Source: Patescibacteria group bacterium
Lineage (GTDB): Bacteria; Patescibacteriota; Microgenomatia; Levybacterales; UBA12049
Reading direction: 5' to 3'
DNA: 64,000 nucleotides
NCBI GenBank assembly: GCA_038064195.1
Contig: JBBTTO010000002.1
Span: forward strand, 466,387 to 530,386
Part shown: positions 1 through 56,368 of the stretch, piece by piece
How the letters are laid out: every line of letters starts with the position of its first letter
Numbering within the stretch: position 1 is the first letter of the stretch
Program-made: the position numbers and the translations under genes
The notes under the pieces: model-generated
What the model saw: only the letters and a program-made list of their open reading frames with translations
Database searches by the model: none
What the model was told of the DNA's origin: nothing

Positions 1-551
1 TCTATTTCATGGCCGGTAATGAGTATCATAAAGACAGATACAAAAAAGCTGACTTGGGAAAAGTGTTTTGGTATGCAGGCGGTACATTTGACTGGGACAA
101 TATCCAGGGACAGCATAGGGGAGTGGATGAGGTTGATCACGGTCAGTATGATACACCCGGGGAAATTGACTTACTGACCGGCTGCTGTGTATTATTCACC
201 AGAGCAGCGCTTAACGTAGTGCGGGGCTTTGACGATAAATATTTTCTTTATTATGAAGATGCAGATTTAAATACGCGACTTCATCAAGCAGGTTTTACTA
301 TTTATTATGAGCCCAAAGCCATGCTCTGGCACGTTAACGCAGGCGCAACTGGTGGATCAGGCTCTGTTCTGCAGGATTACTTTATCAGTCGTAACAGAAT
401 GCGTATCGGGATGAAATACGGGAGATTGCGTACCCGCATTGCTTTAGTACGTGAAAGTATGCGAATTATTCTTGGGGGCAGAAAGTGGCAGCGACGGGGA
501 GTTATAGATTATTATCTTAGACGTTTCGGTAAAGGTAGTTATCCAGTATGA
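1..551 (+). CDS. GT2-family glycosyltransferase, C-terminal portion only; the gene begins upstream of the window
   Basis: The frame is open to the window edge. The C-terminal GT-A motif FLYYEDADLNTRLHQAGF matches the xYxEDxDLcxR motif of rhamnosyl/GT2 transferases. Similar motifs occur in 8797..9753 and 43857..44708. Confidence 0.65.
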   Translation, partial: YFMAGNEYHKDRYKKADLGKVFWYAGGTFDWDNIQGQHRGVDEVDHGQYDTPGEIDLLTGCCVLFTRAALNVVRGFDDKYFLYYEDADLNTRLHQAGFTIYYEPKAMLWHVNAGATGGSGSVLQDYFISRNRMRIGMKYGRLRTRIALVRESMRIILGGRKWQRRGVIDYYLRRFGKGSYPV

Positions 552-1306
552 CTTCACAGAAAATAACCGCGATTGTTCTGGCTAAAAATGAAGAGGACAT
601 GATTGGGGATTGTCTGGAATCCCTCGGGTTTGTGGATGAGATCATTGTTGTCGATAATGATTCCACAGATGATACTGTCGAGATTGCTCGAAAAAAAGGA
701 GCAAAAATCATATCCAGTTCTTCTACCAGCTTTTCTGAGCGACGTGAGATCGGGCTTAAAAAAGTGAAAGCTGGATTTGTTCTCTACCTTGACGCAGACG
801 AACGGATCACACCAGATCTTCAGTTAGAGATTCAAAAAGCCGCTTTCGCTGATTCACCGGTTAGTGCTTACAGGATTCCCCGCCAAAACTTCTATTTGGG
901 GAAGCATCCTTGGCCTGTTATTGAGCGCCATCTCAGATTTTTTCGTAGGGATGGAATCAGAGGCTGGGAGGGGGAGTTACACGAGACAGCCAAAGTTAAA
1001 GGTGACATAGCTGACTTTGTTTCTCCGATGCTCCATTTCACTCATCGTGATTTTTCCTCTATGGTTGAAAAGACTAATAGTTGGTCTGAAAAAGAAGCGG
1101 AATTGCGTATGATCGCTCATCATCCTAAGATTACCTGGTGGCGTTTCCCTCGGGTCATGCTTGCAGCATTTTATCATTCCTACATCACTGAGAAAGGGTG
1201 GAAAGTAGGGACTGCTGGGTTACTTGAAAGTATGTTCCAGGCCTTTAGTATTTTTATTACCTATGCTAAATTATGGGAACTTCAACAAAGAAAACATCGC
1301 GAATAG
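548..1306 (+). CDS. Small GT2 (GT-A) glycosyltransferase, WaaE/KdtX-like
   Basis: N-terminal AIVLAKNEEDMIGDCLESL...EIIVVDNDSTDDT is the GT2 nucleotide-sugar binding region, followed by DADE. Clear paralog of 15496..16272. ATGA overlap with the upstream gene. Confidence 0.8.
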   Translation: MTSQKITAIVLAKNEEDMIGDCLESLGFVDEIIVVDNDSTDDTVEIARKKGAKIISSSSTSFSERREIGLKKVKAGFVLYLDADERITPDLQLEIQKAAFADSPVSAYRIPRQNFYLGKHPWPVIERHLRFFRRDGIRGWEGELHETAKVKGDIADFVSPMLHFTHRDFSSMVEKTNSWSEKEAELRMIAHHPKITWWRFPRVMLAAFYHSYITEKGWKVGTAGLLESMFQAFSIFITYAKLWELQQRKHRE

Positions 1307-2943
1307 GACAATTCCTGAGTTTACCTAAAAAAAAGCTGTATCTCTACGCGCTTATCTTTATTTTTCTCACCGGTTTTATCCTGCGCACTTATCATCTCGA
1401 CTCTCTTCCTCCTAGCCTCAATCGTGATGAAGTTGCGCTTGGCTATAACGCCTATTCAATTCTAACGACAGGTAGGGATGAGCACGGTAAATTTCTGCCG
1501 TTGTCTCTGGAGTCATTCGGGGACTGGAAGTTATCCGGCTATCCGTTTACTGATATTCCATTTATCGCATTTTTTGGACTCAATGAATTTGCAGTCAGAC
1601 TACCGAGTGCCCTAGCAGGGTCACTGTCTGTAATACTTATCTATCTCATTGCCGGATTTATTTTTAAGAAAAAAGCAATAAGCCTTCTTGCTTCATTTTT
1701 TTTCGCTCTCTCGCCATGGAATATATTCTTCTCTCGTGCAGCATATGAGGTGAATCTGGGATTATCTTTCTTTTTAACGGGATTGGTATTCTTACTTTGG
1801 TATGGAGAGTCAAAGAAAAAGACATGGAAATTGTTCGTATCCGGCGTATTTTTTATTCTTCCTCTTTTTACTTATCATGCCTTTATTTTGTTTACACCGT
1901 TATTTATTTTTCCATTACTTTACCTTTATAGAAAGGAAATCTCTTTAAAATCAAGTGTAATTTTTGGCATAACCGTATTTATTTTCTGTGTTTTAGGCTA
2001 TGTGAATATCTCAGTTAGTGGCCTTAACAAAATATCGACACTTTCTGTTTTTTCAAATAAAGATATCATTTACGATCGTGCGGAGAAATTACGGGGGGAT
2101 GGTTCAGTTGATAATCTCTTTATAGCACATATTCTCTACAACAAATATTTTGCCGGCTCTTACCAGATAGCCCAAAATTACGTCTCTACTTTTTCGCCTG
2201 CATTTCTTTTTGACAAAGGGGGAGAAAAAACAGTCCACAATTTAGGCTACTTTGGCAATCTCTATATTTTTGACGTGATACTTCTCTGTGCGGGATTGTT
2301 TTTCCTTATCTCTCGAAGAGATCCGGCATTAGCAATTATCGGTCTTTGGTTGCTTGTAGCTCCTCTCCCTTCAGCTTTGACTTTGGATCCGCAGAACTCG
2401 ACCAGGTTTTATCCTATCCTGCCTGCATTTATTTTCCTCAGTAGTTACGGTGCATATTATCTGTACGTTTTGCTGACACAAAATCGCTTAAGGTCAATAC
2501 TGCTTGTTGGTTTAACAGGGCTATTTCTTTTTAATGTGTTGTTATTTATGGATGGTTATTTTGTCCATATGAGTATTCAACGTGCAAGGTTCTGGGATTA
2601 TGGATATAAGCAAAGTGTCCAGCTTTCACAGCAGTATCCGACATTTCAGGCGGTGATGCGGGGGCCGGAGAATTTTCCATATATATATTTTCTTTTTTAC
2701 AATAAATATGACTCACAACGTTTCAGAAAAGAAGTTAGTTATTATCCGCCAACAAAAGAGGGCTTCTTATATGTTAAGAGCTTTGGTAAGTTTTCTTTCC
2801 CGCCGACTATTAATTACAGTGATTTACATTCAAGGACTCTCTACATTGATAATTATGTTCAGCGTAATTCGACCGATCACCCGATCCATACCATAAATCT
2901 CCCTTCCAATGAGCCGATCTTTATTTATGAAATCAAGCAATAA
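1273..2943 (+). CDS. Polytopic GT-C glycosyltransferase of the PMT/ArnT (GT39/GT83) family
   Basis: About 12 predicted hydrophobic helices. The first extracytoplasmic loop carries RDEVALGYNAYSILTTGRDEHGKFLP, a DE-containing motif characteristic of the PMT/ArnT family and shared with 10535 and 12213. Confidence 0.7.
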   Translation: MGTSTKKTSRIGQFLSLPKKKLYLYALIFIFLTGFILRTYHLDSLPPSLNRDEVALGYNAYSILTTGRDEHGKFLPLSLESFGDWKLSGYPFTDIPFIAFFGLNEFAVRLPSALAGSLSVILIYLIAGFIFKKKAISLLASFFFALSPWNIFFSRAAYEVNLGLSFFLTGLVFLLWYGESKKKTWKLFVSGVFFILPLFTYHAFILFTPLFIFPLLYLYRKEISLKSSVIFGITVFIFCVLGYVNISVSGLNKISTLSVFSNKDIIYDRAEKLRGDGSVDNLFIAHILYNKYFAGSYQIAQNYVSTFSPAFLFDKGGEKTVHNLGYFGNLYIFDVILLCAGLFFLISRRDPALAIIGLWLLVAPLPSALTLDPQNSTRFYPILPAFIFLSSYGAYYLYVLLTQNRLRSILLVGLTGLFLFNVLLFMDGYFVHMSIQRARFWDYGYKQSVQLSQQYPTFQAVMRGPENFPYIYFLFYNKYDSQRFRKEVSYYPPTKEGFLYVKSFGKFSFPPTINYSDLHSRTLYIDNYVQRNSTDHPIHTINLPSNEPIFIYEIKQ

Positions 2944-5203
2944 AAATACGAGCTGGTTTATAAAGAGTGTTATAAAGTATTTGCCGTTAGGTTTTATTAT
3001 TTTTGTTTGGTTCGCTTTCTCCAGTCCATATTTTCTGAGACACTCCGTTCCTTTTCCCACCAGGCAACTCGTCACGTTTTTTGCTCCCTGGAATCAGTAT
3101 GATAAATATGCAGGCCCTGTTAAAAATAATGCCATGCCGGATGTTGTTACGCAGATTTACCCCTGGAAGCATTTTGTCGTTAGTGAGCTTAAGGAGGGTA
3201 GAATGCCTCTATGGAATCCCAATAATTTCTCAGGTAACCCGGCACTCGCAAATTTCCAGACAGCTGTCTTTTCACCTTTTACGCTTTTATATTTTATTTT
3301 GCCTTTTATTGATGCATGGAGTTTGACAGTTCTTCTTCAACCGTTACTTGCAGGGATTTTTACGTATTTTTTGACACGTGAGATGAGAGTGAGTCGGGGA
3401 GGAGCTGTTGTCAGTGCATTAGGATTTATGTTTTCAGGCTTTATCGTCGTTTGGATGGCATACGGAACTCTCTCTATGGCCGTTGCTTTTTTGCCGCTTA
3501 TTCTTCTTAGTCTTGAAAAGTTTTTACGGAAAAATAAGATACGTTTTCTTATCCCGGCCGCACTAGCTGTGACTGTCTCTCTTTTTTCAGGTCATTTTCA
3601 GACCAGTTTGTATGTTCTCATTACATCATTTGTCTTTATTGTCTATCGCTATGCCACTGACAGAAGATTTAAAAGAATGATGATTGCCTGCTTCGCGTTA
3701 CTGAGCGGATGTGTCCTGGCCCTCCCACAACTTATTCCGACATTTGTTCTGTATACGCAATCATTTCGCAGCAGTAACGCTATCGTTGATGGGGGAATTC
3801 CGCTTTACTACCTTATAACTTCCTTCGCTCCGGATTTTTTTGGGAGCCCTGTCACGCGCAATGACTGGGTGGGGTTTTATGCCGAGCGAGCAAGTTTTAT
3901 AGGGATCATCCCTCTTCTCCTAGCAGGCTTTTCATTCTTTCGCATACGCTCTCACTATGTCCTCTTCTTTATCGGTTTGAGTCTTGTCAGTTTGGTCTTA
4001 GCACTTGATACTCCCTTACAAGTGCTTCTAAGTATGGCAGGCATTCCGGTTCTCTCCAGTAGTAATCCTACCCGGATTATTGTTTTATGGAGCTTTGCGA
4101 TGAGCATTTTGGCCGGATTTGGCTATGATTATCTCGGGGAGGTAATTTCTAAAAAAATATTTCGTCATATTCTCTATGTTGTTGTTACCGTTATTGCGAT
4201 CGTCATGTTAGCTTGGTTATCAGTCAGTGTTTTCCGTCTTTTACCCGCTGATAAAGTACATATTGCCGAGCGAAATCTTATTATTCCGACATTGATTCTT
4301 ACGCTGGGAATTTTTGCTATCTTCCTCCAGTTTTTTAACAAACGAATTCGAAAGCAGTCTTTTTTCTTATGGCTCATTATTCTCCTCATAGCCCTTGATA
4401 GTTTTCGTTTTGCCTGGAAATGGATGCCTTTTGACTCAACAGCTATTCTTTTTCCCGATGTTCCGGTGATCTCTGCCATGCAAAAATTGCAGGGTACAGG
4501 TCGGGTCTTCGGCGGCTTTGGCACGGAAGTCCAGACCTATTATGGGGTACGCTCAGTTGAAGGGTACGATCCGTTATATATCAAAAGATACGGAGAATTC
4601 ATCAAAGCTGCCACCACGGGTAGATACACAGTCCCTGATCGTTCTTTTGTAGGAGTTGACAGACAGGCAAAGTCGACTGAAAAGGTGTTGAATTTCCTGT
4701 CAGTCTCTCTTCTTTTTCAGCCGAAGTCACAACTCTTTGTTAATTATGCCTATCCTGTCTGGGGTCGGCCCGATATCTATAAAGTAGTCTACGAGGATGA
4801 TCTATTTCTGCTCTATCACAATAAGACTATGCTGCCTTTTGCCAGACTTTCCTATGTATATGAAGTTTTTACTGATCCCAAGAAGTTATTAGCCCGTTTT
4901 TATGACCCTGATTTTTCATACCAGACGACGACGCTACTTGAGGAGAATCCTTCCTTCCCAGATATGATCCAAAAGGATGCGACCGGATCTGCAGAGATTG
5001 TATCTATGAAACCAACGCGGATAAGTATTAAGGTAAATTCTACCTCCCCTGGCCTATTATTTCTCCCCACACCCTATTACCCCAACTGGCATGCGACAGT
5101 AAACGGAGAAGCTACTCAGATATATCAGGCGGACTATGCTTTTCAAGCCATAAAAATACCGAAAGGAAAATCAGATGTTATTTTTTCTTACTCTTATTTT
5201 TGA
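2909..5203 (+). CDS. YfhO-family polytopic membrane protein (GT-C-like, lipid-linked sugar dependent glycosylation)
   Basis: 764 aa. Contains PLWNPNNFSGNPALANFQTAVFSPF, a YfhO signature. Multi-TM N-terminal two-thirds plus a large C-terminal extracytoplasmic domain. Paralog of 6561..8795. Confidence 0.65.
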   Translation: MSRSLFMKSSNKNTSWFIKSVIKYLPLGFIIFVWFAFSSPYFLRHSVPFPTRQLVTFFAPWNQYDKYAGPVKNNAMPDVVTQIYPWKHFVVSELKEGRMPLWNPNNFSGNPALANFQTAVFSPFTLLYFILPFIDAWSLTVLLQPLLAGIFTYFLTREMRVSRGGAVVSALGFMFSGFIVVWMAYGTLSMAVAFLPLILLSLEKFLRKNKIRFLIPAALAVTVSLFSGHFQTSLYVLITSFVFIVYRYATDRRFKRMMIACFALLSGCVLALPQLIPTFVLYTQSFRSSNAIVDGGIPLYYLITSFAPDFFGSPVTRNDWVGFYAERASFIGIIPLLLAGFSFFRIRSHYVLFFIGLSLVSLVLALDTPLQVLLSMAGIPVLSSSNPTRIIVLWSFAMSILAGFGYDYLGEVISKKIFRHILYVVVTVIAIVMLAWLSVSVFRLLPADKVHIAERNLIIPTLILTLGIFAIFLQFFNKRIRKQSFFLWLIILLIALDSFRFAWKWMPFDSTAILFPDVPVISAMQKLQGTGRVFGGFGTEVQTYYGVRSVEGYDPLYIKRYGEFIKAATTGRYTVPDRSFVGVDRQAKSTEKVLNFLSVSLLFQPKSQLFVNYAYPVWGRPDIYKVVYEDDLFLLYHNKTMLPFARLSYVYEVFTDPKKLLARFYDPDFSYQTTTLLEENPSFPDMIQKDATGSAEIVSMKPTRISIKVNSTSPGLLFLPTPYYPNWHATVNGEATQIYQADYAFQAIKIPKGKSDVIFSYSYF

Positions 5204-5439
5204 GGACGCCTAAGGAGCTTTTTCCAGGATTTTATCTCGCCGATTGTTAGTGGGTTTTTGGCGAATTTGAAGAGATAGACCAGTTCTAAAATACCGAAAG
5301 TATTTATTACAAGTAGTACCACAAACCAGATTTTCTGCTCATTATGTGCAGTCCGCCAAAGCGCGATACCTTTCCAGATCAGAGACCAGAGTCCGATTAT
5401 ATAAAACCAGATGGGATAATTTATGCCTATCATAGGCAT
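5194..5439 (-). CDS. Hypothetical small two-helix membrane protein
   Basis: 81-aa ORF with two hydrophobic helices (PIWFYIIGLWSLIW and FVVLLVINTFGILELVYLF). It lies in the only sizeable non-coding gap of the island, with the opposite orientation to all its neighbours. Confidence 0.35.
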   Translation of the reverse strand: MPMIGINYPIWFYIIGLWSLIWKGIALWRTAHNEQKIWFVVLLVINTFGILELVYLFKFAKNPLTIGEIKSWKKLLRRPQK

Positions 5440-5487
5440 ATCGTAACATAGATACTCAACGATTGCAAAACTTGCTACAATTAAGGG

Positions 5488-6564
5488 ATGAAGATCGGAA
5501 TCTATGATCCGTACCTCGATACACTCTCAGGCGGGGAGAAGTATATGCTCTCAATTGCTTTGTGTTTGCAGGATGACCACGAGGTAGTGATTTTTTGGGA
5601 TAAAGCAAAAGAGCAGGAGATCCGTTCCAAAGCTAAAGAAAGGTTCGGTTTTGATCTTGAAAAGATTGCGTTTGCACCATCACTCTTTTCTAAAAGTGTT
5701 AGCTTTTTGACTCGCTACAACAAAAGTAAAGACTACGATCTCCTGTTCTATCTCAGTGACGGGAGCCTGCCCGTAGTTGCCTGCGACCTTATCGTCCATT
5801 TCCAGTCTCCTATGCTTTGGCTTAAAGGGCGTTCGCTTAAAAATCGTTTGAAGATGAGACGGATTAAAACTGTCATTTGTAATTCAAACTTCACCAAATC
5901 CTATGTAGATAAGATCTTCGGGATTGAAAGTAAGATCGTGTATCCGCCTGTCTCGATTCAAGGACGCTATCAACCCACCAAAAAAGAGCGGATCATCCTT
6001 AACGCCGGACGCTTCGGCATCAACTGGGCCGGTTCGAGTTTTAAGAAGCAGGATATTTTGGCCGAAGCTTTTGCCAGGCTTTATACCGAGGGGCTCAAAG
6101 GTTGGAAGCTGGTTTTTGTTATGAATGTTAAAGATGACGCGTTGTCGGCAGTTGACGATCTCAAAAATAAGTATAAAGATACACCTATCGAATTCGTTCT
6201 CAATCCTAACAATCGCGATCTGTGGAAGTGGTATGAGAAAGCTACGTTTTATTGGCACGCGGCGGGTTTTGCTGAGGACGTAACGACTCATCCGGATCGG
6301 GCCGAACACTTCGGCATGACGACAGTTGAAGCAATGGGAGTCGGTGCTGTTCCGCTTGTAGTTGGTGCCGGCGGACAAAAAGAGATAGTTGAGGATCAAA
6401 AGAACGGAAGACTCTGGAATACAATTGATGAATTAATAAGGTTCACTAAGGAGCTTATTCTAGACGATAAAAAGAGAGAGCTTCTCGTTCAGGAGGCAGT
6501 TAAATCATCAGATAGCTACTCCCTCGAGAGTTTCAATAAAAGTATTAAAGACCTTATTACATGA
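5488..6564 (+). CDS. GT4 (GT-B) glycosyltransferase
   Basis: C-terminal EHFGMTTVEAMGVGAVPLV is the E-X7-E motif of retaining GT4 enzymes. Confidence 0.85.
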   Translation: MKIGIYDPYLDTLSGGEKYMLSIALCLQDDHEVVIFWDKAKEQEIRSKAKERFGFDLEKIAFAPSLFSKSVSFLTRYNKSKDYDLLFYLSDGSLPVVACDLIVHFQSPMLWLKGRSLKNRLKMRRIKTVICNSNFTKSYVDKIFGIESKIVYPPVSIQGRYQPTKKERIILNAGRFGINWAGSSFKKQDILAEAFARLYTEGLKGWKLVFVMNVKDDALSAVDDLKNKYKDTPIEFVLNPNNRDLWKWYEKATFYWHAAGFAEDVTTHPDRAEHFGMTTVEAMGVGAVPLVVGAGGQKEIVEDQKNGRLWNTIDELIRFTKELILDDKKRELLVQEAVKSSDSYSLESFNKSIKDLIT

Positions 6565-9790: not shown

Positions 9791-9799
9791 TGGTATCAT
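9791..9799 (+). promoter_or_regulatory. Extended −10 element TGGTATCAT, 10 nt upstream of the 9810 ATG (near-leaderless)
   Basis: TGnTATCAT in a 56-nt AT-rich gap. No Shine-Dalgarno sequence is seen. Confidence 0.35.
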
Positions 9800-12211: not shown

Positions 12212-12212
12212 T

Positions 12213-43262: not shown

Positions 43263-43263
43263 T

Positions 43264-47788: not shown

Positions 47789-49217
47789 ATCATCTGCAAT
47801 CAGGCTACTCTTTGTAATACTTGTCTTAGGATTTTTAGTCAGGCTTTATAGGTTTGATAGTCCTATCGCGGACTGGCACAGCTGGCGTCAGGCTGACACT
47901 TCCGCCGTGTCACGTAATTTTGCCACGTATGGTTTTGATATACTCCATCCCCGTTTTGATGATTTGTCTAATGTCCCATCAGGGCTGGAAAACCCCCGGG
48001 GTTATCGTTTTGTTGAATTTCCGATCTACAATATTGCCCAAGCTGGCTTGTTCAGAATTTTTGGGGTCATTACCATTGAAGAGTGGGGAAGACTGATTAC
48101 TATCCTTACATCTCTGGCGGGTAGCTTTTTTCTTTATAAAATTGTGTCTAAATACTCGGGTGAGACTGCCGGACTGGCGAGCGCATTCTTTTATACCTTT
48201 TTACCTTTTAATATTTATTATGGTCGTACTATTTTGCCTGATCCGACCATGGTAGCAACACTCCTGAGTTCGATATATTTTTTTAGCAGGTGGATAGACA
48301 GCAAAACCAAACCCTGGTCTATTTTATCGGCAGCAACCATACTGCTGGCTGTCTCTCTTTTACTTAAGCCATACGCGCTTTTCTATGCGTTAGTTTTTCT
48401 GGCTCTGATCTACAAAGAATTTGGAACCGGTATGTTCAAGCAGCTCAAGCTTTATATTTTCGCCCTTGTGGCCGTTGTGCCACTTATTGCCTGGAGACTA
48501 TGGATCACAAATTATCCTGAGGGTATCCCTGCCAGCGCCTGGTTGTTTAACGGCAACGGTATCAGATTCCGTCCGGCTTTTTTTCGTTGGATAGGATATG
48601 AGCGATTGATCAAGCTTATATCAGGGTATATAGGCATTATTTTGGTGATTTTCGGGCTTTACCAACTCAGATTTGAAAAAGCCCGATTGCTTTATTCTGC
48701 CTTTCTCCTCAGCTCCAGTATCTATGTAGTTGTCCTGGCAACCGGTAATGTTCAGCATGATTATTATCAGATAGTCATTATGCCCAGTGTTGCGATTATA
48801 TTCGGACTGGGAGCCAGATTTTTATTAGAAAGCAAAAAAATCAGTTTTTTCCATTTTAATAGACTCTTGCTTGCTTTCATAATTTTTATCGCCTTTAGTA
48901 TGAGTTGGCTGCAGGTACGTGACTATTTTAATATCAACAACCGCTCAATAGTCATTGCCGGTGAGGCTATAGATCGGATGATACCTAAAGACGCCAAAAT
49001 TATTGCTAACTATAACGGTGATACATCATTTCTTTATCAGACGAAGCGCAAAGGCTGGGCTAGTTTTGAAAAGCCGTTACCCGAGATGATCACGATGGGG
49101 GCAGACTACCTCGCGTTGGCTAATCCGACTAAAGTCGATGAGGGATTGGGTCAGACTTACAAAATAATTAAAAAGACGAAAGACTATCTACTGCTTGATT
49201 TACACCGAAAACCATGA
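47778..49217 (+). CDS. Polytopic GT-C glycosyltransferase, PMT_2/ArnT-like
   Basis: WHSWRQADTSAVSRNF follows the first helix; I recall this as a PMT_2-type signature loop. 479 aa with about 11 helices. Confidence 0.55.
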   Translation: MVSKSSAIRLLFVILVLGFLVRLYRFDSPIADWHSWRQADTSAVSRNFATYGFDILHPRFDDLSNVPSGLENPRGYRFVEFPIYNIAQAGLFRIFGVITIEEWGRLITILTSLAGSFFLYKIVSKYSGETAGLASAFFYTFLPFNIYYGRTILPDPTMVATLLSSIYFFSRWIDSKTKPWSILSAATILLAVSLLLKPYALFYALVFLALIYKEFGTGMFKQLKLYIFALVAVVPLIAWRLWITNYPEGIPASAWLFNGNGIRFRPAFFRWIGYERLIKLISGYIGIILVIFGLYQLRFEKARLLYSAFLLSSSIYVVVLATGNVQHDYYQIVIMPSVAIIFGLGARFLLESKKISFFHFNRLLLAFIIFIAFSMSWLQVRDYFNINNRSIVIAGEAIDRMIPKDAKIIANYNGDTSFLYQTKRKGWASFEKPLPEMITMGADYLALANPTKVDEGLGQTYKIIKKTKDYLLLDLHRKP

Positions 49218-50392
49218 AGATTCTCATGATCTCATCATATCTGCCGTACCCGCTTTTTGACGGAGGTTCCGTACGCCTGTATAACCTCATGCGGGAATTA
49301 CAAAAAGAGCATGCGATTACGCTTATCTGTGAACAAAGAGTCCACCAAGGAAGGGCTGAAAAAGAGGCTGTAGAAAAAATCTGTAAAAAAGTTATTACCG
49401 TTCCCAGACGTAAGCAATGGTCAATCCCTAATCTTTTGAAAACCGGTTTATCAGGCGACTCTTTTTTGATTGTCGGTCATACACTCCCACAGATGAAAAA
49501 GGCAATCGAAGAAGAACTGAAAGCTGAGGAGTATGACCTTATTCATATAGAGACATCCTATGTGATGCAAAATCTTCCCCGGACAAAACTGCCTATTGTT
49601 TTAGTTGAACATAATATCGAGTATATGGTCTATGAAAAATTTATGAATAAAGCACCACTTCCACTGCGCCTTTTTTTGAAAATTGATATTCAAAAGCTGA
49701 AAAAACGTGAAGAAGCCTTTTGGCATCAGGCAACGCAGGTTGTAACTGTCTCTGATGTCGAAAAAGAAGTTGTCGAGAAGACAGGAATAAAAGCCAAAAC
49801 CGTTTATAACGGGGTCGATCTTGAGACATTCAAATTTAAGAAATCTGAATCTGAGAAAGATATCAAGCAATTCCTTTTTATCGGCAGCTACAAATGGTTA
49901 CAGAATCGTGATTCGGTACGCTGGATTCTTCAGGATATTTGGCCTAAGATAAGACAAAATACGAGTGAAAAAGTCGTTTTGCGGATTGTCGGGCGTGATA
50001 TGCCACGGGATATTAAAAACTGGAAGGATGACACGGTTATTATTGAGGAAAATTCACCGCGTAAAGCCGTCGACATCTTTTCCGAAAGCTTTGCTTTGCT
50101 CGCGCCGATTCGAATTGGAGGAGGAAGTCAATACAAAATTTTAGAAGCAATGGCAGTAGGCACGCCTGTTCTTACAACAAGCCTCGGTCTTTCAGGATTG
50201 GATATTAGTCCCGATCAGGATATCCTTGTTGCCGATACCGCTCAGGGATTAGTCGAGTCAGCCGTTCAATTACTCAAAGATCCAAAGCTATCCCAAAGTC
50301 TCAGAGCTCACGCTCGTAAGCAAATTGAAGCCAAATATGATTGGTCTGCTATCGCCAAAACGTTAGGGAGTGTTTATCAGTCGGTTGTCTAA
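49214..50392 (+). CDS. GT4 glycosyltransferase
   Basis: GT-B organisation. GGGSQYKILEAMAVGTPVL EX7E-like region. ATGA overlap with the upstream gene. Confidence 0.8.
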   Translation: MKILMISSYLPYPLFDGGSVRLYNLMRELQKEHAITLICEQRVHQGRAEKEAVEKICKKVITVPRRKQWSIPNLLKTGLSGDSFLIVGHTLPQMKKAIEEELKAEEYDLIHIETSYVMQNLPRTKLPIVLVEHNIEYMVYEKFMNKAPLPLRLFLKIDIQKLKKREEAFWHQATQVVTVSDVEKEVVEKTGIKAKTVYNGVDLETFKFKKSESEKDIKQFLFIGSYKWLQNRDSVRWILQDIWPKIRQNTSEKVVLRIVGRDMPRDIKNWKDDTVIIEENSPRKAVDIFSESFALLAPIRIGGGSQYKILEAMAVGTPVLTTSLGLSGLDISPDQDILVADTAQGLVESAVQLLKDPKLSQSLRAHARKQIEAKYDWSAIAKTLGSVYQSVV

Positions 50393-50394
50393 AT

Positions 50395-51552
50395 ATGAAA
50401 ATAGGGATTGATGCGAGGTTTTGGAACGAGACAGGAGTCGGGCGTTATATCCGTAATCTGGTTACAGAGCTACAGATTATTGATCAGGATAATGATTATG
50501 TACTCTTTGTCTTAAGTAAAGATTACGAGCAAGTAAAATTTCAAATTTCAAATCTCAAATTTAACATTAGAACTGTTGATATACATTGGCATTCGATTAA
50601 GGAGCAAAAAGATTTTCCTTCAATTATTACCAAGGAAAATCTTGATCTTATGCATTTCCCCTATTTCTCAATTCCAATTCTGTATAAAAGACCATATGTT
50701 GTTACGATTCATGATTTGATTCTTCACCATTTCCCGACCGGTGAAGCAACGACACTCCCAAAACCTGTCTATTTCCTAAAAATGGGCGGATATAAATATA
50801 TTATCTCTCAGGCAGCCAAGCACGCTGAGAAAATCATTGCAGTTTCCCAGGCAACCAAAGACGAGATAGTCGATCACCTTCATGTCAAACCCTCAAAAAT
50901 AGACGTAGTATATGAAGGGATCGATCCACTAATTAAAGACCACCACAAGGGCACTACCTTCAAAGAAGGGTCGCAGAGACCAAAGACCGAGGACCAAAAA
51001 TACGGGAAATACTTTCTGCACATTGGCAATGTCTATCCTCATAAAAATGCAGAACGTTTAGTTGATGCGTTTGGAAAAGCAAATGTTCCTGATACAAGGC
51101 TCATTTTTGTCGGTAAAAAAGATTATTTTATGAGCAAACTTGAACAGCGCGTGAAGAAGCAAGAGCTTCAGGATCGAATACTTTTTACCGGGTTTGTCAC
51201 AGACGAAGAGTTAGCCGGTCTTTTAAAGCACTCCTTAGCAACAGTTGTCCCATCACTTATGGAGGGCTTTGGTTTGCCTGTGATCGAAGCATTTGCCCAA
51301 AATTCCTTAGTTATAGCATCAGATATTCCCTCACTCAGAGAAGTAGCTAAAGACGCTGCTCTTTTTGTTGATCCGTTTAACATTGACGATATTTCTGCTA
51401 AGATGCAAACCGTTGCTTCAGCTGATCCTGAAGAGTTTGAATCACTTCGTAAAAAAGGTTTGGCGATTGCCCGGGGGTTTTCGTGGGAGAAGATGGCCCG
51501 GGAGACACTGAAAATCTATGAAAGTAGCGTTAGTATACGACAGAGTCAATAA
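50395..51552 (+). CDS. GT4 glycosyltransferase
   Basis: MEGFGLPVIEAFAQNSLVI EX7E motif. Start placed at the ATG 2 nt after the upstream stop; the ORF-track TTG at 50341 overlaps the upstream gene. Confidence 0.8.
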   Translation: MKIGIDARFWNETGVGRYIRNLVTELQIIDQDNDYVLFVLSKDYEQVKFQISNLKFNIRTVDIHWHSIKEQKDFPSIITKENLDLMHFPYFSIPILYKRPYVVTIHDLILHHFPTGEATTLPKPVYFLKMGGYKYIISQAAKHAEKIIAVSQATKDEIVDHLHVKPSKIDVVYEGIDPLIKDHHKGTTFKEGSQRPKTEDQKYGKYFLHIGNVYPHKNAERLVDAFGKANVPDTRLIFVGKKDYFMSKLEQRVKKQELQDRILFTGFVTDEELAGLLKHSLATVVPSLMEGFGLPVIEAFAQNSLVIASDIPSLREVAKDAALFVDPFNIDDISAKMQTVASADPEEFESLRKKGLAIARGFSWEKMARETLKIYESSVSIRQSQ

Positions 51553-52600
51553 ATGGGGAGGAGCCGAAAGGGTTCTCCTTGCTCTGCATGAGCTTTTCCC
51601 ACAGGCGCCTCTTTATACCTCGGTCTACCATCATGGGAGGGCACCATGGGCCAGCGTATTTGATATCAGGACTTCCTTTCTTCAGAACTTTCCGTTTGCT
51701 AAAGACTCGCATGAATTGTATCCGCTTTTGATGCCGGCAGCCTTTGAGTCATTTACTTTTGCTGATTATGACCTGGTTATTTCGGTAACCAGCGAGGCAG
51801 CCAAGGGTGTTATTACCAAGCCTGGGACTATGCATATCTGTTACTGTCTTACTCCGACGCGGTATCTGTGGAGCGGTCGCAGTGAGTACTTTTCAAATCC
51901 GATTCTTTCTTTTCTGGCAACACCCGCGATAAACTATTTAAAAAAATGGGATCTGGTTGCCGCGTCCCGTCCCGATCACTATATAGCTATCTCCAGGGAA
52001 GTTAAGGCACGTCTGCACAATTTCTATAGGCGTGATTCAACTATCATCCATCCGCCTGTTGAGCTTTATGCAGGGATACCTCTCAAAAAAACAGCCGGAG
52101 ATTATTATCTCGTTGTTTCACGCTTGGTTCCTTATAAAAGAGTTGATCTTGCCATAAAAGCTTGTAATAAATTAGGCCTTCCCTTAAAAGTCGTAGGTAC
52201 TGGTAACGAGGAGGAGCGCTTACGCGAAATGGCCGGACCGACAGTCGAGTTCATAGGGTCAATATCTGACGAAGGATTGATAAAACTTTACCAGCACGCA
52301 AAGGCGCTTATTTTTCCAGGTCTGGAGGATTTTGGCATAGTTATGGCTGAGTCTTTAGGCTTTGGTAAGCCTGTCATTGCTTTTGACCGCGGAGGGGCCA
52401 GAGATATAGTTGAGGATGGTCGTTCAGGCATACTTTTCACTTCTCAGAATGTAACAGCTCTCATTGAAGCTATCTTAAGATCGCAGAAAATAGATTTTAA
52501 TCCGAAGACATTGAGGAGAAGAGCGGAATTTTTCGGCAAGGATCAATTCAAAAATAAATTTTCCCGCTATATTAAGGAGATTTGCAAAAGCATAAAATAG
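51518..52600 (+). CDS. GT4 glycosyltransferase
   Basis: LEDFGIVMAESLGFGKPVI EX7E motif. 360 aa. Confidence 0.8.
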   Translation: MKVALVYDRVNKWGGAERVLLALHELFPQAPLYTSVYHHGRAPWASVFDIRTSFLQNFPFAKDSHELYPLLMPAAFESFTFADYDLVISVTSEAAKGVITKPGTMHICYCLTPTRYLWSGRSEYFSNPILSFLATPAINYLKKWDLVAASRPDHYIAISREVKARLHNFYRRDSTIIHPPVELYAGIPLKKTAGDYYLVVSRLVPYKRVDLAIKACNKLGLPLKVVGTGNEEERLREMAGPTVEFIGSISDEGLIKLYQHAKALIFPGLEDFGIVMAESLGFGKPVIAFDRGGARDIVEDGRSGILFTSQNVTALIEAILRSQKIDFNPKTLRRRAEFFGKDQFKNKFSRYIKEICKSIK

Positions 52601-52619: not shown

Positions 52620-53705
52620 ATGAAAGTTGTTCTATTTGCTGGCGGTGTGGGTTCACGTCTCTGGCCACTTTCCCGCAAAAATACCCCTAAGCAATTCGGT
52701 AAGATCATTGGTGATATGTCAATGCTTCAGATAGCTGTGAAAAAACTTTTTCCTTCCTTTACCTGGTCTGACGTTTATATCTCCACCGGCAAACAATATG
52801 AGGAGATCGTACGCAACCAACTCAAAGAATTACCCTCTGAAAATATTCTTATTGAGCCTGAGATGCGTGATGTTGGTCCGGCAGTTGGCCTTATTACCTC
52901 ACTTTTCGTTAAAAGCAATCCCAATGAACCTATCGCGTTACTTTGGGGAAGTGACCATTTAGTTCGGGAAGAAGAACTGTTCCGTAAAGTGCTTAAAGCA
53001 GCTGAGCAACTGGTTCGAGAAGATGGTGAGAGAATTGTTTTTGTCGGTCAAAAGCCCCGGTTTGCCAATCAAAATTTAGGCTATATTGAATACACATCAC
53101 AAGTCAAAGAAGTTGATGGACTACCTGTTTATTCATTTTCCAATTTCCAGTATCGCCCTCATTTATCAAAAGCTGAGAGATGGGTTAAGGACGGCCATCA
53201 TGCGTGGAATTTGGGGTATTTTGTCACAACTCCTGCTTTTCTTTGGAAACTTTTTGAACAGTTCGCCCCTGAGCTCTTCGTTAAGCTTAAAAAAATTAAT
53301 GATGCTATAGGTACTCCTGAATATGATAAGGTGCTGCAGGAAATTTATCCGACAATTGAAAAGATTTCTTTTGATAACGCCATTCTTGAAAAGATGGATC
53401 CTAAATATGGCTACGTGCTTTCTGTTGATTTGGGTTGGAGTGATATTGGCGCGTGGGAAGCTCTGAAAGAGGCTCTATCGGTAAATCAAAATGAAAATGT
53501 CACAAGAGGTGATGTTCTGATTGAAGATACCGAAGATTCATTAGTATTTAATTTTACCAAGCAGCTTGTGGTAGGCATTGATCTAAAGGGTATGGTGGTT
53601 GTAAATACAGGTGATGTACTTCTCATCTGTCCTAAAGATTCAGTACCAAAAGTGAAGGAGATCGTGGCCGGCTTGAGTGGAACAGAACATGAGCATTTGA
53701 CGTAG
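52620..53705 (+). CDS. manC: Mannose-1-phosphate guanylyltransferase (GDP-mannose pyrophosphorylase), no PMI domain
   Basis: GGVGSRLWPLSRKNTPKQF matches the GGxGxRLWPLSR signature. 361 aa. Confidence 0.8.
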   Translation: MKVVLFAGGVGSRLWPLSRKNTPKQFGKIIGDMSMLQIAVKKLFPSFTWSDVYISTGKQYEEIVRNQLKELPSENILIEPEMRDVGPAVGLITSLFVKSNPNEPIALLWGSDHLVREEELFRKVLKAAEQLVREDGERIVFVGQKPRFANQNLGYIEYTSQVKEVDGLPVYSFSNFQYRPHLSKAERWVKDGHHAWNLGYFVTTPAFLWKLFEQFAPELFVKLKKINDAIGTPEYDKVLQEIYPTIEKISFDNAILEKMDPKYGYVLSVDLGWSDIGAWEALKEALSVNQNENVTRGDVLIEDTEDSLVFNFTKQLVVGIDLKGMVVVNTGDVLLICPKDSVPKVKEIVAGLSGTEHEHLT

Positions 53706-53707
53706 CC

Positions 53708-54373
53708 ATGCCATACATCGAAATTAAAAAGAGTAGAGGGTATGAATTAGTAAAGCGGCTCATCGATATAGTATCTGCGCTTATTATTCTCATCATTTTT
53801 TCTCCGGTTATTCTTATTGTCGCTATAGCCATCATGCTTGATTCCAAGGGTCCTATTTTAGCTGATACTCCGGAGCGTGTAGGGCAGGAGGGTAAGCTTT
53901 TTAAGATGTTTAAATTTCGTTCCATGATTCCTAACGCCCATACTATTTTGCGTGAAGATCCTGAATTCGCCGCGCTGTATGAACAGTACAAAAAAGGAAG
54001 TTATAAGCTGAAAAATGATCCGAGGATTACCAGAGTGGGAAGGTTTATCAGGAAGCATTCGTTAGATGAGGCACCCCAGTTGTTTAATGTTCTTAAAGGA
54101 GATATGAGTCTGGTAGGTCCGAGAGCCTACTATCCTGATGAGTTACGAGACCAACAGAAGAAATACCCGGAGACACAAGATGCAGTCAAAGTCGTGCTAT
54201 CGGTAAAGCCTGGAGTGACAGGCCTATGGCAAGTATCAGGCAGAAGTGAAATAAATTTTGACAAACGTATTAAGATGGACGCTAATTATGTAAGAAGACG
54301 TTCAATTCTCTATGATATGTGGTTAATTTTATGTACCCCTGCCGCAGTGATAACGGGGAAAGGAGCGCGGTAA
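53708..54373 (+). CDS. Polyprenyl-phosphate sugar-1-phosphate transferase (bacterial sugar transferase, small monotopic PGT; initiating enzyme)
   Basis: One N-terminal helix LIDIVSALIILIIFSPVILIVAIAIML. Contains FKFRSM, VGPRAYYPDE and PGVTGLWQVSGRS, the hallmarks of the WbaP/PglC C-terminal-domain family. Confidence 0.85.
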   Translation: MPYIEIKKSRGYELVKRLIDIVSALIILIIFSPVILIVAIAIMLDSKGPILADTPERVGQEGKLFKMFKFRSMIPNAHTILREDPEFAALYEQYKKGSYKLKNDPRITRVGRFIRKHSLDEAPQLFNVLKGDMSLVGPRAYYPDELRDQQKKYPETQDAVKVVLSVKPGVTGLWQVSGRSEINFDKRIKMDANYVRRRSILYDMWLILCTPAAVITGKGAR

Positions 54374-54391: not shown

Positions 54392-54421
54392 TTGACAAAG
54401 GCTAAAGCTCTCTCGTATCAT
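54392..54421 (+). promoter_or_regulatory. Candidate promoter TTGACA-N18-TATCAT, ending 6 nt before the ATG at 54428
   Basis: Perfect −35 hexamer. The ORF-track TTG start coincides with the −35 box, so the true start is more likely the ATG at 54428 (leaderless). Confidence 0.4.
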
Positions 54422-54427
54422 TGTCAT

Positions 54428-56368
54428 ATGCCCGGATTTGAGAAAATCGATCTTGATCTTAAAAACGAGATAGTCACACCACTCTCACCTATGGCGCGTA
54501 CTAAAAAACATAATGCGTTTATCAAGAAGCATCTAAAAGTTATCAGTATTGGGTCGGTAATTTTTGTTATCTTTTTGCTATTTGGGCTGATTCTCCCCCT
54601 CCTAACCGTTGTTAAATCAGCCAAACAGACGTACGCTCAGGCTAAAATCCTTTCCAGTGCTATCAAGCAGCAAAACATAGCAGTAGCCTCACAGGAGTTA
54701 GTTAAGACCCAATCTGCACTGGCCGATACCCAGAAAAAGATGCGTATTCTCGGCTATCTTCATTTTGTCCCGTTGGCTAACTTTTATTATAACGATGCCA
54801 GCCACCTGATGAACGCGGGAGCCGAAGGTCTCAAGACAGCAACTATTGTTATTGATGCCTTAAAACCATATGCTGACGTTTTAGGTCTTAAAGGACAGGG
54901 AAGCTTTGTCGGAGGATCGGCTGAAGACAGGATCAAAACTGCAGTTTTGACTATGGGTAAGATTACTCCTCAGATCGATCAAATCTCAGAAAGCTTAGTT
55001 AACGTTAAATCAGAGATTGATCAGGTAAATCCCAATCATTATCCGTCCGTTTTGTTTGGCTCCAAGATTAAGACTCAGCTGATAGCTGCTAAGACCTTAA
55101 CTGATGAGGGAGTTGCGTTTGTCAATCAGGCCCGTCCGCTTATTAAAGTACTTCCGTCACTACTCGGTGAGTCGGAAGAGAAAAAATATCTTATTCTTTT
55201 CCAAAATGATAAAGAACTGCGTCCGACCGGCGGATTTATCACCGCCTACGCTGTTTTCAGATTGGATAAAGGAATTATTCACTTAGAGCGATCTGATGAT
55301 ATTTATAAGCTTGATGACTCAATCTCCAGTAAGCCAGCAGCTCCAGCTCCGATTTTGAAGTATCTTCCTAAAGTGTACACATTAAATCTTCGTGACAGCA
55401 ATCTTTCACCTGATTTTGTTGAGTCAATGATTCAGTTTAATAAGCTCTATGATAAAGCCGGTCAAAAAGTCGCTGTTGACGGCATCATTGCTCTGGATAC
55501 TTACGTCCTCACCTCGACTATTAAAATTCTTGATGATCAGATAACAGTTGACGGCCAGACCTTTACTACCAAAAATGATCCCCGTTGTGACTGTGCCCAG
55601 GTGATCTATTCACTTGAGGATAGTATTTCCCGACCGGTCAATTACATCAAAACAGATCGTAAGGGATTACTCGGAGATATGCTTGCAGCGCTGATGAGTA
55701 AAGCTTTGTCTTCATCCCCTAAGATCTACTGGGGACCGTTATTTCAGTCCATGCTCGCCCAGACTCATCAAAAGCATATTCTTTTCTATCTCTTTGACAA
55801 AGATGCTCAGTCAGGTATTGAGTCACTTCAGGCAGCGGGTAAGATTGTGCCCTTTGAGGGGGACTATCTCCATATTAACGAAGCCAATTTCAGCGGAGCC
55901 AAGGCCAATCTCTTTATCACGCAAAAAGTTGAGAATTCCTATGATATTAAAGGTGACGGTACAATTAGTAAGACCGTGACTATTAATTACAAAAATACGC
56001 ACGCGCCGTCTGACTGTAATTTGGAGCGGGGCGGTCTGTGTCTGAACGCAGAGTATCGTGACTGGATCCGGGTCTATGTACCAAAAGGCAGTAAGCTGAC
56101 TGATAGTAAAGGCAATGAAGTCAAAGTCAGTACCTATGATGAGTTAGGCAAGACGGTCTTTGACAGCTTTATTACTGTCAGACCGCTGGGGGCCGCGACG
56201 TATACACTGACGTATACGTTGCCTTTCAAAGTACAAAATCGCGTCTTACCCTTGTTGATCCAAAAACAACCGGGGACTGATCAGCCGGCGTATACAGTCA
56301 AAGTCGGCGGACGTACCGTTGAGAAATTTGACCTCCTGATTGATAAAGAGCTTAAATTAAAGATTTAA
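54428..56368 (+). CDS. DUF4012-like membrane-anchored extracytoplasmic protein
   Basis: One N-terminal helix VISIGSVIFVIFLLFGLILPLLTVV, then about 590 aa of hydrophilic, probably exported sequence. I recognise the size and context as DUF4012-type proteins that accompany polysaccharide loci; this was not verified. Confidence 0.45.
   Translation: MPGFEKIDLDLKNEIVTPLSPMARTKKHNAFIKKHLKVISIGSVIFVIFLLFGLILPLLTVVKSAKQTYAQAKILSSAIKQQNIAVASQELVKTQSALADTQKKMRILGYLHFVPLANFYYNDASHLMNAGAEGLKTATIVIDALKPYADVLGLKGQGSFVGGSAEDRIKTAVLTMGKITPQIDQISESLVNVKSEIDQVNPNHYPSVLFGSKIKTQLIAAKTLTDEGVAFVNQARPLIKVLPSLLGESEEKKYLILFQNDKELRPTGGFITAYAVFRLDKGIIHLERSDDIYKLDDSISSKPAAPAPILKYLPKVYTLNLRDSNLSPDFVESMIQFNKLYDKAGQKVAVDGIIALDTYVLTSTIKILDDQITVDGQTFTTKNDPRCDCAQVIYSLEDSISRPVNYIKTDRKGLLGDMLAALMSKALSSSPKIYWGPLFQSMLAQTHQKHILFYLFDKDAQSGIESLQAAGKIVPFEGDYLHINEANFSGAKANLFITQKVENSYDIKGDGTISKTVTINYKNTHAPSDCNLERGGLCLNAEYRDWIRVYVPKGSKLTDSKGNEVKVSTYDELGKTVFDSFITVRPLGAATYTLTYTLPFKVQNRVLPLLIQKQPGTDQPAYTVKVGGRTVEKFDLLIDKELKLKI

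Follow-up and report, generated by a model that had tools for sequence, protein, structure and literature searches.

Whether one pathway or several are encoded is the question raised by a block of 46 genes in a 64,000-nucleotide stretch of DNA of a Patescibacteria group bacterium (GenBank assembly GCA_038064195.1, contig JBBTTO010000002.1, positions 466,387 to 530,386 of the forward strand), which is referred to below as the window. An original prediction, made from the sequence of the window, had described positions 1 to 56368 as a single large unit for glycan assembly. Our analysis points instead to a mosaic, which resembles neither one operon nor one pathway. On balance, it is likely to be a composite 'glycome' locus of Candidatus Levybacteria, in which several envelope-glycan pathways lie head to tail in three working parts. 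Every enzyme class in it is known; what is unusual is the scale and packing of the genes, a 12-gene core conserved in order, and a predicted fusion of a WaaL-like domain with a GT-C glycosyltransferase.

The gene content of the block was determined from 51 substantial open reading frames (ORFs) in the window, numbered g1 to g51, and 46 genes were counted within 1-56368 when the 79-aa DUF5652 gene at 5194-5433 was included. The predicted density of glycan genes was borne out, as 44 of the 46 were tied to glycan assembly by Pfam, NCBIfam, profile comparison or fold evidence, and most of the ORFs do fall in glycosyltransferase (GT) families. The coding density was 98.6%, 27 of 44 gene junctions overlapped, and only two genes (33516-34805 and 5194-5433) were found on the minus strand, in agreement with the predicted arrangement. 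Pfam assigned eleven genes to GT2, including g1, which is truncated by the window start, and the synthase-like genes at 9810 and 40598. The predicted family assignments were correct, but the predicted sum of eleven GT2 plus two polyprenol-phosphate-sugar synthases counted two genes twice, because these eleven already include the synthase-like pair. The ten GT4 proteins that had been predicted comprise nine complete ones and one N-domain-only protein at 41599, and "at least nine" GT-C-like enzymes became twelve. Among the other membrane families, Pfam recognized PMT/PMT_2 (five), YfhO (two), PTPS_related/YfhO (one), DUF2079 (one) and Wzx (one). Single copies were found of a 1027-aa fusion with a weak Wzy_C match, a Bac_transf phosphoglycosyltransferase (PGT), ManC, a hexapeptide acetyltransferase, an AsnB-type amidotransferase, a DegT aminotransferase and a DUF4012 protein. 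Two short-chain dehydrogenase/reductase (SDR) genes (GalE and a second epimerase/dehydratase) and two methyltransferases were also present; the entries of the predicted tailoring list held, and the DegT aminotransferase at 30152 had been missed.

To determine how this content is kept among relatives, the window proteins were compared with the ORFs of 80 genome loci that surround homologues of g38 and of 45 metagenome loci that surround homologues of g10. In the comparison, which took in 160 related loci overall, the single unit of the original prediction resolved into three conservation layers: the core g34-g45 is shared across the Microgenomates, the framework g2-g19 is kept at the level of the Levybacteria, and the low-GC cassette g20-g32 is confined to one clade. 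The core (41.6-56.4 kb, 12 genes) was collinear in at least 67 of the 80 loci, including those of Gottesman- and Roizmanbacteria, with recO usually next to it, and the framework varied in its GT-C copy number; this was the synteny comparison that the original prediction had proposed. Median identities in the core ranged from 42% (g38) to 72% (the PGT g44). Its genes are as follows (here and below, assignments are by Pfam unless another source is given; TM, transmembrane segment).

41599-42132, + strand: g34, stand-alone GT4 N-terminal domain of 177 aa, opening the core (PF13439 only)
42129-43262, + strand: g35, GT4
43228-43869, + strand: g36, hexapeptide acetyltransferase of the WcaF type (Pfam, NCBIfam)
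43857-44708, + strand: g37, GT2
44705-47788, + strand: g38, 1027-aa candidate fusion of a WaaL/Wzy_C-like domain and a PMT_2-like GT-C
47778-49217, + strand: g39, GT-C of the PMT_2 family
49214-50392, + strand: g40, GT4
50341-51552, + strand: g41, GT4
51518-52600, + strand: g42, GT4
52620-53705, + strand: g43, ManC mannose-1-phosphate guanylyltransferase (PF00483 and ManC beta-helix; TIGR01479, 227 bits, below cut-off), with TATAAT 10 nt upstream
53708-54373, + strand: g44, small PGT (Bac_transf), the priming enzyme (PF02397, 206 bits vs a cut-off of 27), matching the catalytic domain of WbaP/EPS sugar transferases (NCBIfam)
54392-56368, + strand: g45, DUF4012 protein with one TM, closing the core (PF13196, 76 bits)

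Two features of the core differ from a plain series of complete enzymes. The short g34 gene (41599-42132) lies directly upstream of a complete GT4 gene and is kept as a separate gene in 61 of the 80 related loci; it is therefore not a pseudogene fragment, and its product may serve a glycosyltransferase as a split-off or regulatory subunit. Between g40 and g41, most relatives (L014-L086) carry an additional g37-like GT2 that is absent here and in the closest relatives (L007-L013), which suggests that the core glycan of this clade has one sugar fewer or a different one.

Many metagenome contigs kept the gene order of the framework g2-g19, at about 45-65% identity. Between g10 and g12 the loci differed in their number of GT-C genes, some having extra PMT_2 copies and up to three g13-like copies. 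The genes of the left part of the block, including g1 ahead of the framework, are the following.

1-551, + strand: g1, GT2, C-terminal 180 aa of a 305-aa protein (Glyco_tranf_2_3) that starts 366 nt upstream of the window and is complete in L167 (8362-9279)
548-1306, + strand: g2, GT2 (PF00535, 60 bits)
1273-2943, + strand: g3, GT-C of the PMT/PMT_2 type (GT39/83-like) with 9 predicted TM (PF02366 and PF13231 above cut-off)
2909-5203, + strand: g4, GT-C of the YfhO family (PF09586, 90 bits)
5194-5433, - strand: small DUF5652 protein, 79 aa (PF18893, E 3e-21; called as a gene in L167)
5488-6564, + strand: g5, GT4 (PF00534)
6561-8795, + strand: g6, GT-C of the YfhO family (PF09586, 88 bits)
8797-9753, + strand: g7, GT2 (PF00535 and PF13641) with one C-terminal TM (TM prediction)
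9810-10526, + strand: g8, GT2 of the Dpm1/AglJ type, candidate polyprenol-phosphate-hexose synthase (PF00535, 127 bits)
10535-12211, + strand: g9, GT-C of the PMT_2 family
12177-13877, + strand: g10, GT-C of the PMT_2 family, with 474 related metagenome stretches
13874-15514, + strand: g11, GT-C-like protein of the PTPS_related/YfhO type (PF10131, 51 bits)
15496-16272, + strand: g12, GT2
16368-17816, + strand: g13, Pfam-less GT-C with 9 predicted TM (profile comparison with PMT_2)
17813-19411, + strand: g14, GT-C of the PMT_2 family
19440-20414, + strand: g15, UDP-glucose 4-epimerase GalE (TIGR01179, 396 bits vs a cut-off of 262)
20473-21510, + strand: g16, GT4, with TATAAT 14 nt upstream
21485-22786, + strand: g17, Wzx-type flippase (Polysacc_synt; PF01943, 38 bits vs a cut-off of 28.2)
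22773-23555, + strand: g18, GT2
23456-24646, + strand: g19, GT4 (start at 23552 according to gene callers)

Over 22-40 kb the GC content (guanine plus cytosine) fell from 0.41-0.43 to 0.34-0.39, a stretch that takes in the clade-restricted cassette. In the complete Levybacteria chromosome L035 and in L028, g34 follows directly after g14, so the genes g15-g33 are dispensable as a block. The cassette and g33, which separates it from the core, consist of the following genes.

24643-25479, + strand: g20, GT2
25481-26389, + strand: g21, GT2
26392-28275, + strand: g22, AsnB-type glutamine amidotransferase (PF00733, 268 bits; TIGR01536, 454 bits), presumed to act in sugar amidation
28265-29059, + strand: g23, S-adenosylmethionine (SAM)-dependent methyltransferase
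29046-30086, + strand: g24, GT2
30152-31327, + strand: g25, DegT/RfbH-type pyridoxal phosphate-dependent sugar aminotransferase or dehydrase (PF01041, 201 bits; RfbH, 210 bits, below cut-off)
31340-32287, + strand: g26, SAM-dependent methyltransferase
32284-33525, + strand: g27, GT4
33516-34805, - strand: g28, GT4, the sole large gene on the minus strand, lacking in the distant relative L185
34800-37067, + strand: g29, Pfam-less GT-C with about 14 predicted TM, a C-terminal beta-sandwich and a TM anchor
37071-38039, + strand: g30, SDR sugar epimerase/dehydratase (PF01370, 202 bits; no equivalog cut-off reached)
38005-39165, + strand: g31, Pfam-less membrane protein with a conserved extracytoplasmic domain (GC 0.32, the window minimum)
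39143-40549, + strand: g32, DUF2079 polytopic membrane protein (PF09852, 112 bits)
40598-41533, + strand: g33, membrane-anchored GT2 of the ArnC/PgfS/GtrB type with C-terminal transmembrane segments, candidate polyprenol-phosphate-sugar synthase (NCBIfam)

The central protein of the core, g38, had more than 1700 homologues, nearly all of about 1020 aa and annotated as 'hypothetical' or 'O-antigen ligase family'. Its predicted structure (pLDDT 78.6, pTM 0.77) showed a WaaL fold with a beta-sandwich insert in the N-terminal half, and the Foldseek comparison was concordant. PF04932 (Wzy_C) matched this half with 29.3 bits, below the cut-off of 31.7, and is a precomputed Pfam match in many homologues; no sequence-level match was found among PDB chains. 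The WaaL assignment thus rests on the predicted fold. In the second half, residues 582-719 aligned with the PMT_2 core in a profile comparison (probability 96.5%, E 1e-9), and D540 and D541, at the start of the GT-C half in what is assumed to be an outer-face loop, were invariant. Taken together, g38 is predicted to join a WaaL-like domain to a GT-C glycosyltransferase in one chain. A literature search of partial coverage returned no account of this locus or of such a fusion in bacteria of the candidate phyla radiation (CPR).

Three polytopic membrane proteins, g13, g29 and g31, had no Pfam match even at E = 10; their topology is from TM prediction. For g13, the homologues (736 representatives) gave a profile that aligned over 214 columns with that of PMT_2 (hhalign probability 95%, E 3e-8), and g13 is therefore classed as a divergent GT-C. 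In the alignment of g13 and its homologues, D12 was invariant and D16 nearly so, both in an assumed outer-face loop. Its homologues begin about 25-40 residues before the residue aligned to the first ATG of the ORF. The true start of g13 is thus probably about 30 codons upstream, and the 95-nt gap at 16273-16367 is probably coding from a non-ATG start, since the homologues extend further N-terminally. The g29 protein, with only 10 homologues among 5.8 billion proteins, showed an AftD-like predicted fold at 11% identity to AftD and a nearly invariant D33 in its homologue alignment (again with the outer-face loop position assumed), and is assigned as a GT-C enzyme on its fold. Profile comparison linked g31 to none of the WaaL-like, PMT_2, g13 or g29 families. 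The g31 family is composed of an N-terminal TM, a conserved extracytoplasmic domain of about 110 aa and about seven TM, with G86, F92, D101, F105, E109, W115, Y117, Y121 and F134-G-F-P137 invariant, and g31 diverges faster than its neighbours (40% vs about 70% identity in L009). The idea that g31 is the missing Wzy polymerase found no support, as the protein is Pfam-less, lacks a profile link and has the conserved soluble domain instead. The DUF2079 family of g32 presumably belongs to the Pfam GT-C clan; the single-sequence hhalign comparison of g32 with PMT_2 found nothing, and comparisons of this kind (g29, g13, g31, g32 and g11 against profiles) were too insensitive. The g13 and g38 profiles likewise found nothing among PDB sequences, where only fold comparison worked. 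The Pfam-less families of g13 and g29 can now be annotated as GT-C enzymes.

Position 1, where the original prediction had set the left end, is a mere window edge, and the left border of the locus was placed at about -17.0 kb in window coordinates. Upstream content was read from a same-contig stretch of 10 kb before g3, from L171 (same strain, 99.7%) and from L172/L173, a sister species with 82-84% nucleotide identity. In the nearest 10 kb, the order was two PMT_2 genes (the first cut), two PTPS_related genes, a 239-aa GT2 closest to g8, a Wzx gene, a GT2 and the full-length g1; a second Wzx protein (484 aa) is thus encoded upstream of the window. At the left end (L171, L172/L173), NUDIX and LMWPc genes are followed by a GT2, an MptA_B-family GT-C, a 362-aa membrane protein with a weak PMT match, a PMT_2 gene, a YfhO gene (799 aa) and another PMT_2 gene. 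The MptA_B assignment is a precomputed Pfam record, our own hmmscan of the same gene giving no family. The LMWPc gene (L171 154-558, about 17.2-17.6 kb before the window start), of a Wzb-like family, lies just outside the left border, and no bacterial tyrosine kinase (BY-kinase) was seen with it. Because glycan genes continue for about 17 kb upstream, the full locus comprises about 73.4 kb and about 58 genes, or 6.8% of a 1,075,823-bp contig, and it is far larger than usual O-antigen or capsule loci, as had been predicted from the shorter block. It contains 20-21 GT-C-type enzymes when g47, just beyond recO, is counted. All paralogues of the locus, including the upstream genes, are at most 36% identical to one another and hence old.

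The integrity of the assembly was confirmed with independent data. The window was 100% identical to positions ~1,009,270-1,073,269 of the ENA ERZ1292617 contig Hain_H52_01um_R3_1 (1,075,823 bp), which derives from the 0.1-µm filter fraction of Hainich groundwater and has 63x coverage according to the contig name. In Logan, one 57.8-kb contig of ERR3654040 spans about -27 kb to +30.7 kb in window coordinates at 100% identity, and contigs of ERR3858110, ERR3858127 and ERR3858128 (119 kb) tile the window at 100% identity. A frameshift-rich 721-kb contig (L179; ENA ERZ1286166) is collinear over the entire window. A chimeric contig, one of the outcomes that would have spoken against the original prediction, was ruled out by these independent collinear assemblies, and recent tandem duplication or collapsed repeats by the low identity of the paralogues and the lack of long repeats in the window. 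An assembly artefact, whether by chimerism or by collapsed or duplicated paralogues, is thus already refuted and has a negligible probability. In L002, L005 and L171 (3-5x coverage) and in the long-read-like, frameshift-rich L179, which belong to the same strain (99.7% identical), many small indels fragment GT genes. Since these are low-coverage or long-read-like assemblies, errors of assembly or sequencing are the most likely cause of the breaks, and the fragmented GT4 genes were treated as such, not as pseudogenes or phase variants.

Full-length relatives of g38 were found in Candidatus Levybacteria, Gottesmanbacteria and Roizmanbacteria (Microgenomates group, Patescibacteria), and the named relatives nearest to this genome are Levybacteria. 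The predicted small, compact genome is therefore that of a Candidatus Levybacteria member of the CPR, on a 1.08-Mb contig. Many records with fully syntenic Levybacteria-like loci (L007, L008, L010, L011, L016 and others) bear the title 'uncultured Gammaproteobacteria bacterium', and two others those of 'Candidatus Limnocylindrales' (L028) and 'Candidatus Parcubacteria' (L017); these taxonomic titles look wrong or like placeholders.

Next, the transcriptional organization was considered from motifs in the window. Extended -10 boxes (TGnTAnnnT) ended 6-10 nt before the starts of g5, g8, g15, g33 and g50, that is, at 5 of 47 plus-strand starts against 0.86 expected.

5473-5481, + strand: extended -10 box TGCTACAAT, 6 nt before the g5 start
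9791-9799, + strand: extended -10-like box TGGTATCAT, 10 nt before the g8 start
19422-19430, + strand: extended -10 box TGTTACAAT, 9 nt before the g15 start
40583-40591, + strand: extended -10 box TGATACAAT, 6 nt before the g33 start
62000-62008: extended -10 box before the g50 start

The arrangement at g33 was kept in 13 of 26 g33 homologues of relatives, and TATAAT precedes g16 (by 14 nt) and g43 (by 10 nt). No Shine-Dalgarno-like sequence was evident at the starts in the window, a generic sigma-70 and terminator scan was uninformative (47 promoter-like sites vs 39 expected), and an Rfam scan of the window gave no match. The pattern looks like one of leaderless or very-short-leader mRNAs. 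The boxes inside the block and the minus-strand g28, which breaks the run, suggest about eight mostly leaderless units, the longest being g16-g27 and g34-g42 (about 11-13 kb each). The predicted very long co-transcribed units would therefore hold in part, at lengths of up to 11-13 kb, and a single 56-kb operon is unlikely.

A scheme for the working of the locus can be proposed from the families, folds, gene order, conservation depth and assembly integrity given above; its donor sugars, order of steps, flippase roles, acceptor and transcription units are conjectural. In the core, the PGT g44 would prime polyprenyl phosphate on the cytoplasmic face of the membrane, and four or five GT4 enzymes, a GT2 and the acetyltransferase would extend the lipid-linked oligosaccharide. 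The GT4 enzymes are probably mannosyltransferases, with GDP-mannose supplied by ManC (g43). After Wzx had flipped the lipid-linked glycan across the membrane, the WaaL-like N-terminal half of g38 could move it en bloc onto an acceptor outside, and the GT-C half of g38 together with the PMT_2 protein g39 would subsequently attach sugars one at a time, taken from polyprenol-phosphate donors. The GT-C arrays (about 20 genes in 73 kb) would draw on polyprenol-phosphate sugars for the assembly or decoration of glycans or proteins at the outer face, as in the multi-component transmembrane glycosylation known from Gram-positive bacteria and mycobacteria. These donors may be made by the Dpm1/GtrB/ArnC-like GT2 proteins (g8, g33 and the upstream u1 and u10) for the adjacent GT-Cs, and GT-C genes do stand beside GT-A genes: g6 (YfhO) is followed by g7 and g8 (GT2), g8 by g9, g10 and g11, and g32 (DUF2079) by g33. 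The two Wzx proteins may flip lipid-linked units or monosaccharide donors. The low-GC cassette (about g20-g32) would contribute additional GT2 and GT4 enzymes and tailoring functions (amidotransferase, DegT, two methyltransferases, epimerase/dehydratase) that diversify the product. An elaborate surface glycoconjugate, as originally predicted, is the natural reading of this gene content.

Several observations weigh against this composite scheme. The split into three modules is based on conservation patterns, not on function. Pfam scans of the window found no Wzy polymerase, Wzz/polysaccharide co-polymerase, ABC exporter, GtrA flippase or LytR-CpsA-Psr (LCP) ligase, although Wzy is so divergent that its absence is unproven; neither a GtrA-family match nor a leftover small multi-TM ORF was found in the window from the ORF map and Pfam. 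Essential steps would consequently be encoded elsewhere or by unrecognized proteins (g31, DUF4012). One PGT stands against two Wzx proteins, and the ligase call for g38 relies on a predicted fold with the Wzy_C match below the Pfam cut-off. The NCBIfam matches of g8 (best with AglJ, dolichyl-phosphate hexose transferase and PpgS), of g33 (end-to-end alignments with ArnC, 178 bits, and with PgfS, 160 bits vs a cut-off of 500), of ManC and of the tailoring enzymes all lie below the equivalog cut-offs, so the substrate specificities are guesses.

The same genes could serve mainly for general protein O-glycosylation, a possible but rather doubtful reading that partly overlaps the composite one. 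The WaaL-like half of g38 would then be an O-oligosaccharyltransferase (like PglL, PilO and WsfB), and the PMT and YfhO enzymes would act on S-layer, pilin or Ser/Thr-rich surface proteins instead of on a polysaccharide. O-oligosaccharyltransferases with a Wzy_C domain occur in Neisseria, Pseudomonas and Paenibacillus, the absence of Wzy and Wzz suits en-bloc transfer of short glycans, and PF02366 (PMT) matched g3, g9 and g10 above the Pfam cut-off (36.7-37.8 bits vs 22.7). A PMT domain by itself leaves the substrate unfixed, since lipid A (for ArnT) and teichoic acids are among the substrates of PMT_2 relatives. Streptococcal YfhO enzymes glycosylate membrane proteins (PMC12041528), but teichoic acids and wall polysaccharides are equally frequent targets of YfhO and PMT_2 enzymes (PMC8035078), and no S-layer, pilin or Ser/Thr-rich acceptor gene was found in the window (Pfam scans) or beside the locus. 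The entire block might also form one linear pathway to a single very complex polymer resembling mycobacterial arabinogalactan or lipoarabinomannan, with all genes contributing to that product. The co-directional, tightly packed genes and the single PGT fit such a pathway, and MptA_B, AftD-like and PMT_2 GT-Cs together with GDP-mannose and GT4 enzymes resemble the logic of lipomannan (LM) and lipoarabinomannan (LAM) synthesis. It is nevertheless unlikely, because the core occurs without the middle cassette (L035, L028) and, in Gottesmanbacteria, without most of the GT-C arrays; GT-C copy number differs between relatives, promoter-like sites lie inside the block, and two Wzx proteins and about four Dpm1-like synthases are present.

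The region of about 22-40 kb invites yet another explanation, in which it was acquired recently as a strain-specific island, in the manner of O-antigen serotype cassettes, so that the great length of the locus would be an accident of its insertion. The GC dip, the rarity of g29 and the absence of the stretch between g14 and g34 in L035 and L028 are consistent with it. The cassette is intact in the sister species, however, where g29 is 82% identical, and in L185 it is remodelled around a g29 of 46% identity, lacking g28 and g25 and carrying a different g31 and an extra PMT_2 gene. This distribution argues for an old cassette kept vertically within the clade. Moreover, every contig found with these exact proteins has the same context, and no tRNA, insertion sequence (IS) element, integrase, or flanking or long repeat was detected in the window. 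A mobile island was rejected on these grounds, and we regard recent acquisition as very improbable.

The composite locus was next compared with known systems. Multi-component transmembrane glycosylation by a GT-A enzyme, a flippase (GtrA- or Wzx-type) and a GT-C (YfhO, PMT_2 or Pfam-less) has been described for teichoic acids and wall polysaccharides (PMC8035078, PMC5836110), as has protein O-glycosylation of the YfhO type (PMC12041528). B. subtilis and L. lactis have three GT-A/GT-C pairs each, and Wzx-type flippases have been proposed as substitutes in some of these systems (review PMC8035078). The likeness to CsbB/GtcA/YfhO, GtlA/GtlB, GacI/GacL and CsdAB-EF lies in the adjacent genes for a GT-A, here a candidate synthase of the polyprenol-phosphate sugar, and a polytopic GT-C that would act outside the membrane. 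Known genomes have one to three pairs, whereas about 20 GT-C genes and about four synthase-like GT2 genes occur here in one locus, and the GtrA-type flippase known there has no counterpart in this window, although the two Wzx proteins could stand in for it. The flippase gene is often unlinked in the known systems.

With the Wzx-dependent O-antigen and capsule pathways and WaaL (7TPG/7TPJ), the locus shares the initiating PGT and Wzx, while Wzy and Wzz are not recognizable and the WaaL-like domain is apparently fused to a GT-C and carries a beta-sandwich insert. CPR bacteria are not known to make lipid A-core, so the acceptor must differ from that of WaaL. The mycobacterial LM/LAM and arabinogalactan enzymes (PimA/B, Ppm1, PimE, MptA/B, AftA-D, Emb) are similar at the level of fold only and not orthologous (7-13% identity in structural alignments). 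Genes for decaprenyl-phosphate-arabinose were not seen in the window, where Pfam scans found no UbiA- or DprE-like genes, and in contrast to the mycobacterial genes those of this locus are clustered in one co-directional block. The genes g33, g30, g29 and g32 mirror PgfS/PgfE/PgfM1/PgfM2 of the S. mutans Pgf system, and YfhO-family enzymes are present as well (PMC12041528). Unlike in Pgf and the streptococcal GtrB/PgtC2 system, no gene for an adhesin or a substrate with an intrinsically disordered region lies nearby, g33 falls short of the PgfS cut-off (160 vs 500 bits), and g29 is AftD-like instead of YfhO-like. In the Bifidobacterium longum 105-A exopolysaccharide/capsular polysaccharide cluster, the priming PGT lies directly beside a DUF4012 gene, as here, but that cluster is conventional, with Wzz and without GT-C arrays (PMC5412050). 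DUF4012 has been listed among the CPR-enriched families by Meheust et al. (PMC6744442).

Beyond recO, the glycan genes give way to other functions.

57004-58827, - strand: g47, GT-C of the PMT_2 family, outside 1-56368
58747-60345, + strand: g48, prolyl-tRNA-synthetase-like protein
60338-61915, - strand: PurF-like amidophosphoribosyltransferase relative (206 bits, below the 350-bit cut-off)
from 62747: mraZ-rsmH cell-division cluster, just past the glycan locus

The longest ORFs of g47 and g48 overlap head to head by 81 nt; a later start is used for g48 by gene callers (503 aa). De novo nucleotide synthesis is generally reported to be missing from the lineage in which this PurF-like gene occurs.

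A life attached to other cells, or dependent on them, is generally assumed for CPR bacteria, whose surface chemistry is almost unknown. Glycosylation in this group has been described as unexplored (PMC11623550). That a genome of about 1 Mb devotes about 7% to one glycan locus is a strong statement of priority. A new mechanism is not demonstrated here; the genomic investment and the fusion enzyme are notable and testable for CPR biology and glycobiology, and the conserved 12-gene core and the WaaL-like/GT-C protein, with its more than 1700 homologues, provide concrete experimental targets. The variable GT-C arrays and the low-GC cassette make strain-level surface variation accessible to study, and possibly phage or host specificity too. 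More tentatively, the Microgenomates may share a lineage-defining envelope glycoconjugate pathway centred on a hitherto undescribed bifunctional enzyme, an en-bloc WaaL-type ligase and GT-C in one, that would couple attachment of the lipid-linked glycan to extracytoplasmic extension. In Levybacteria, this pathway would have been expanded by about 20 GT-Cs into a mycobacterium-like, mostly extracytoplasmic glycan factory, and its variable coat may be the main interface of these ultra-small cells with hosts and phages.

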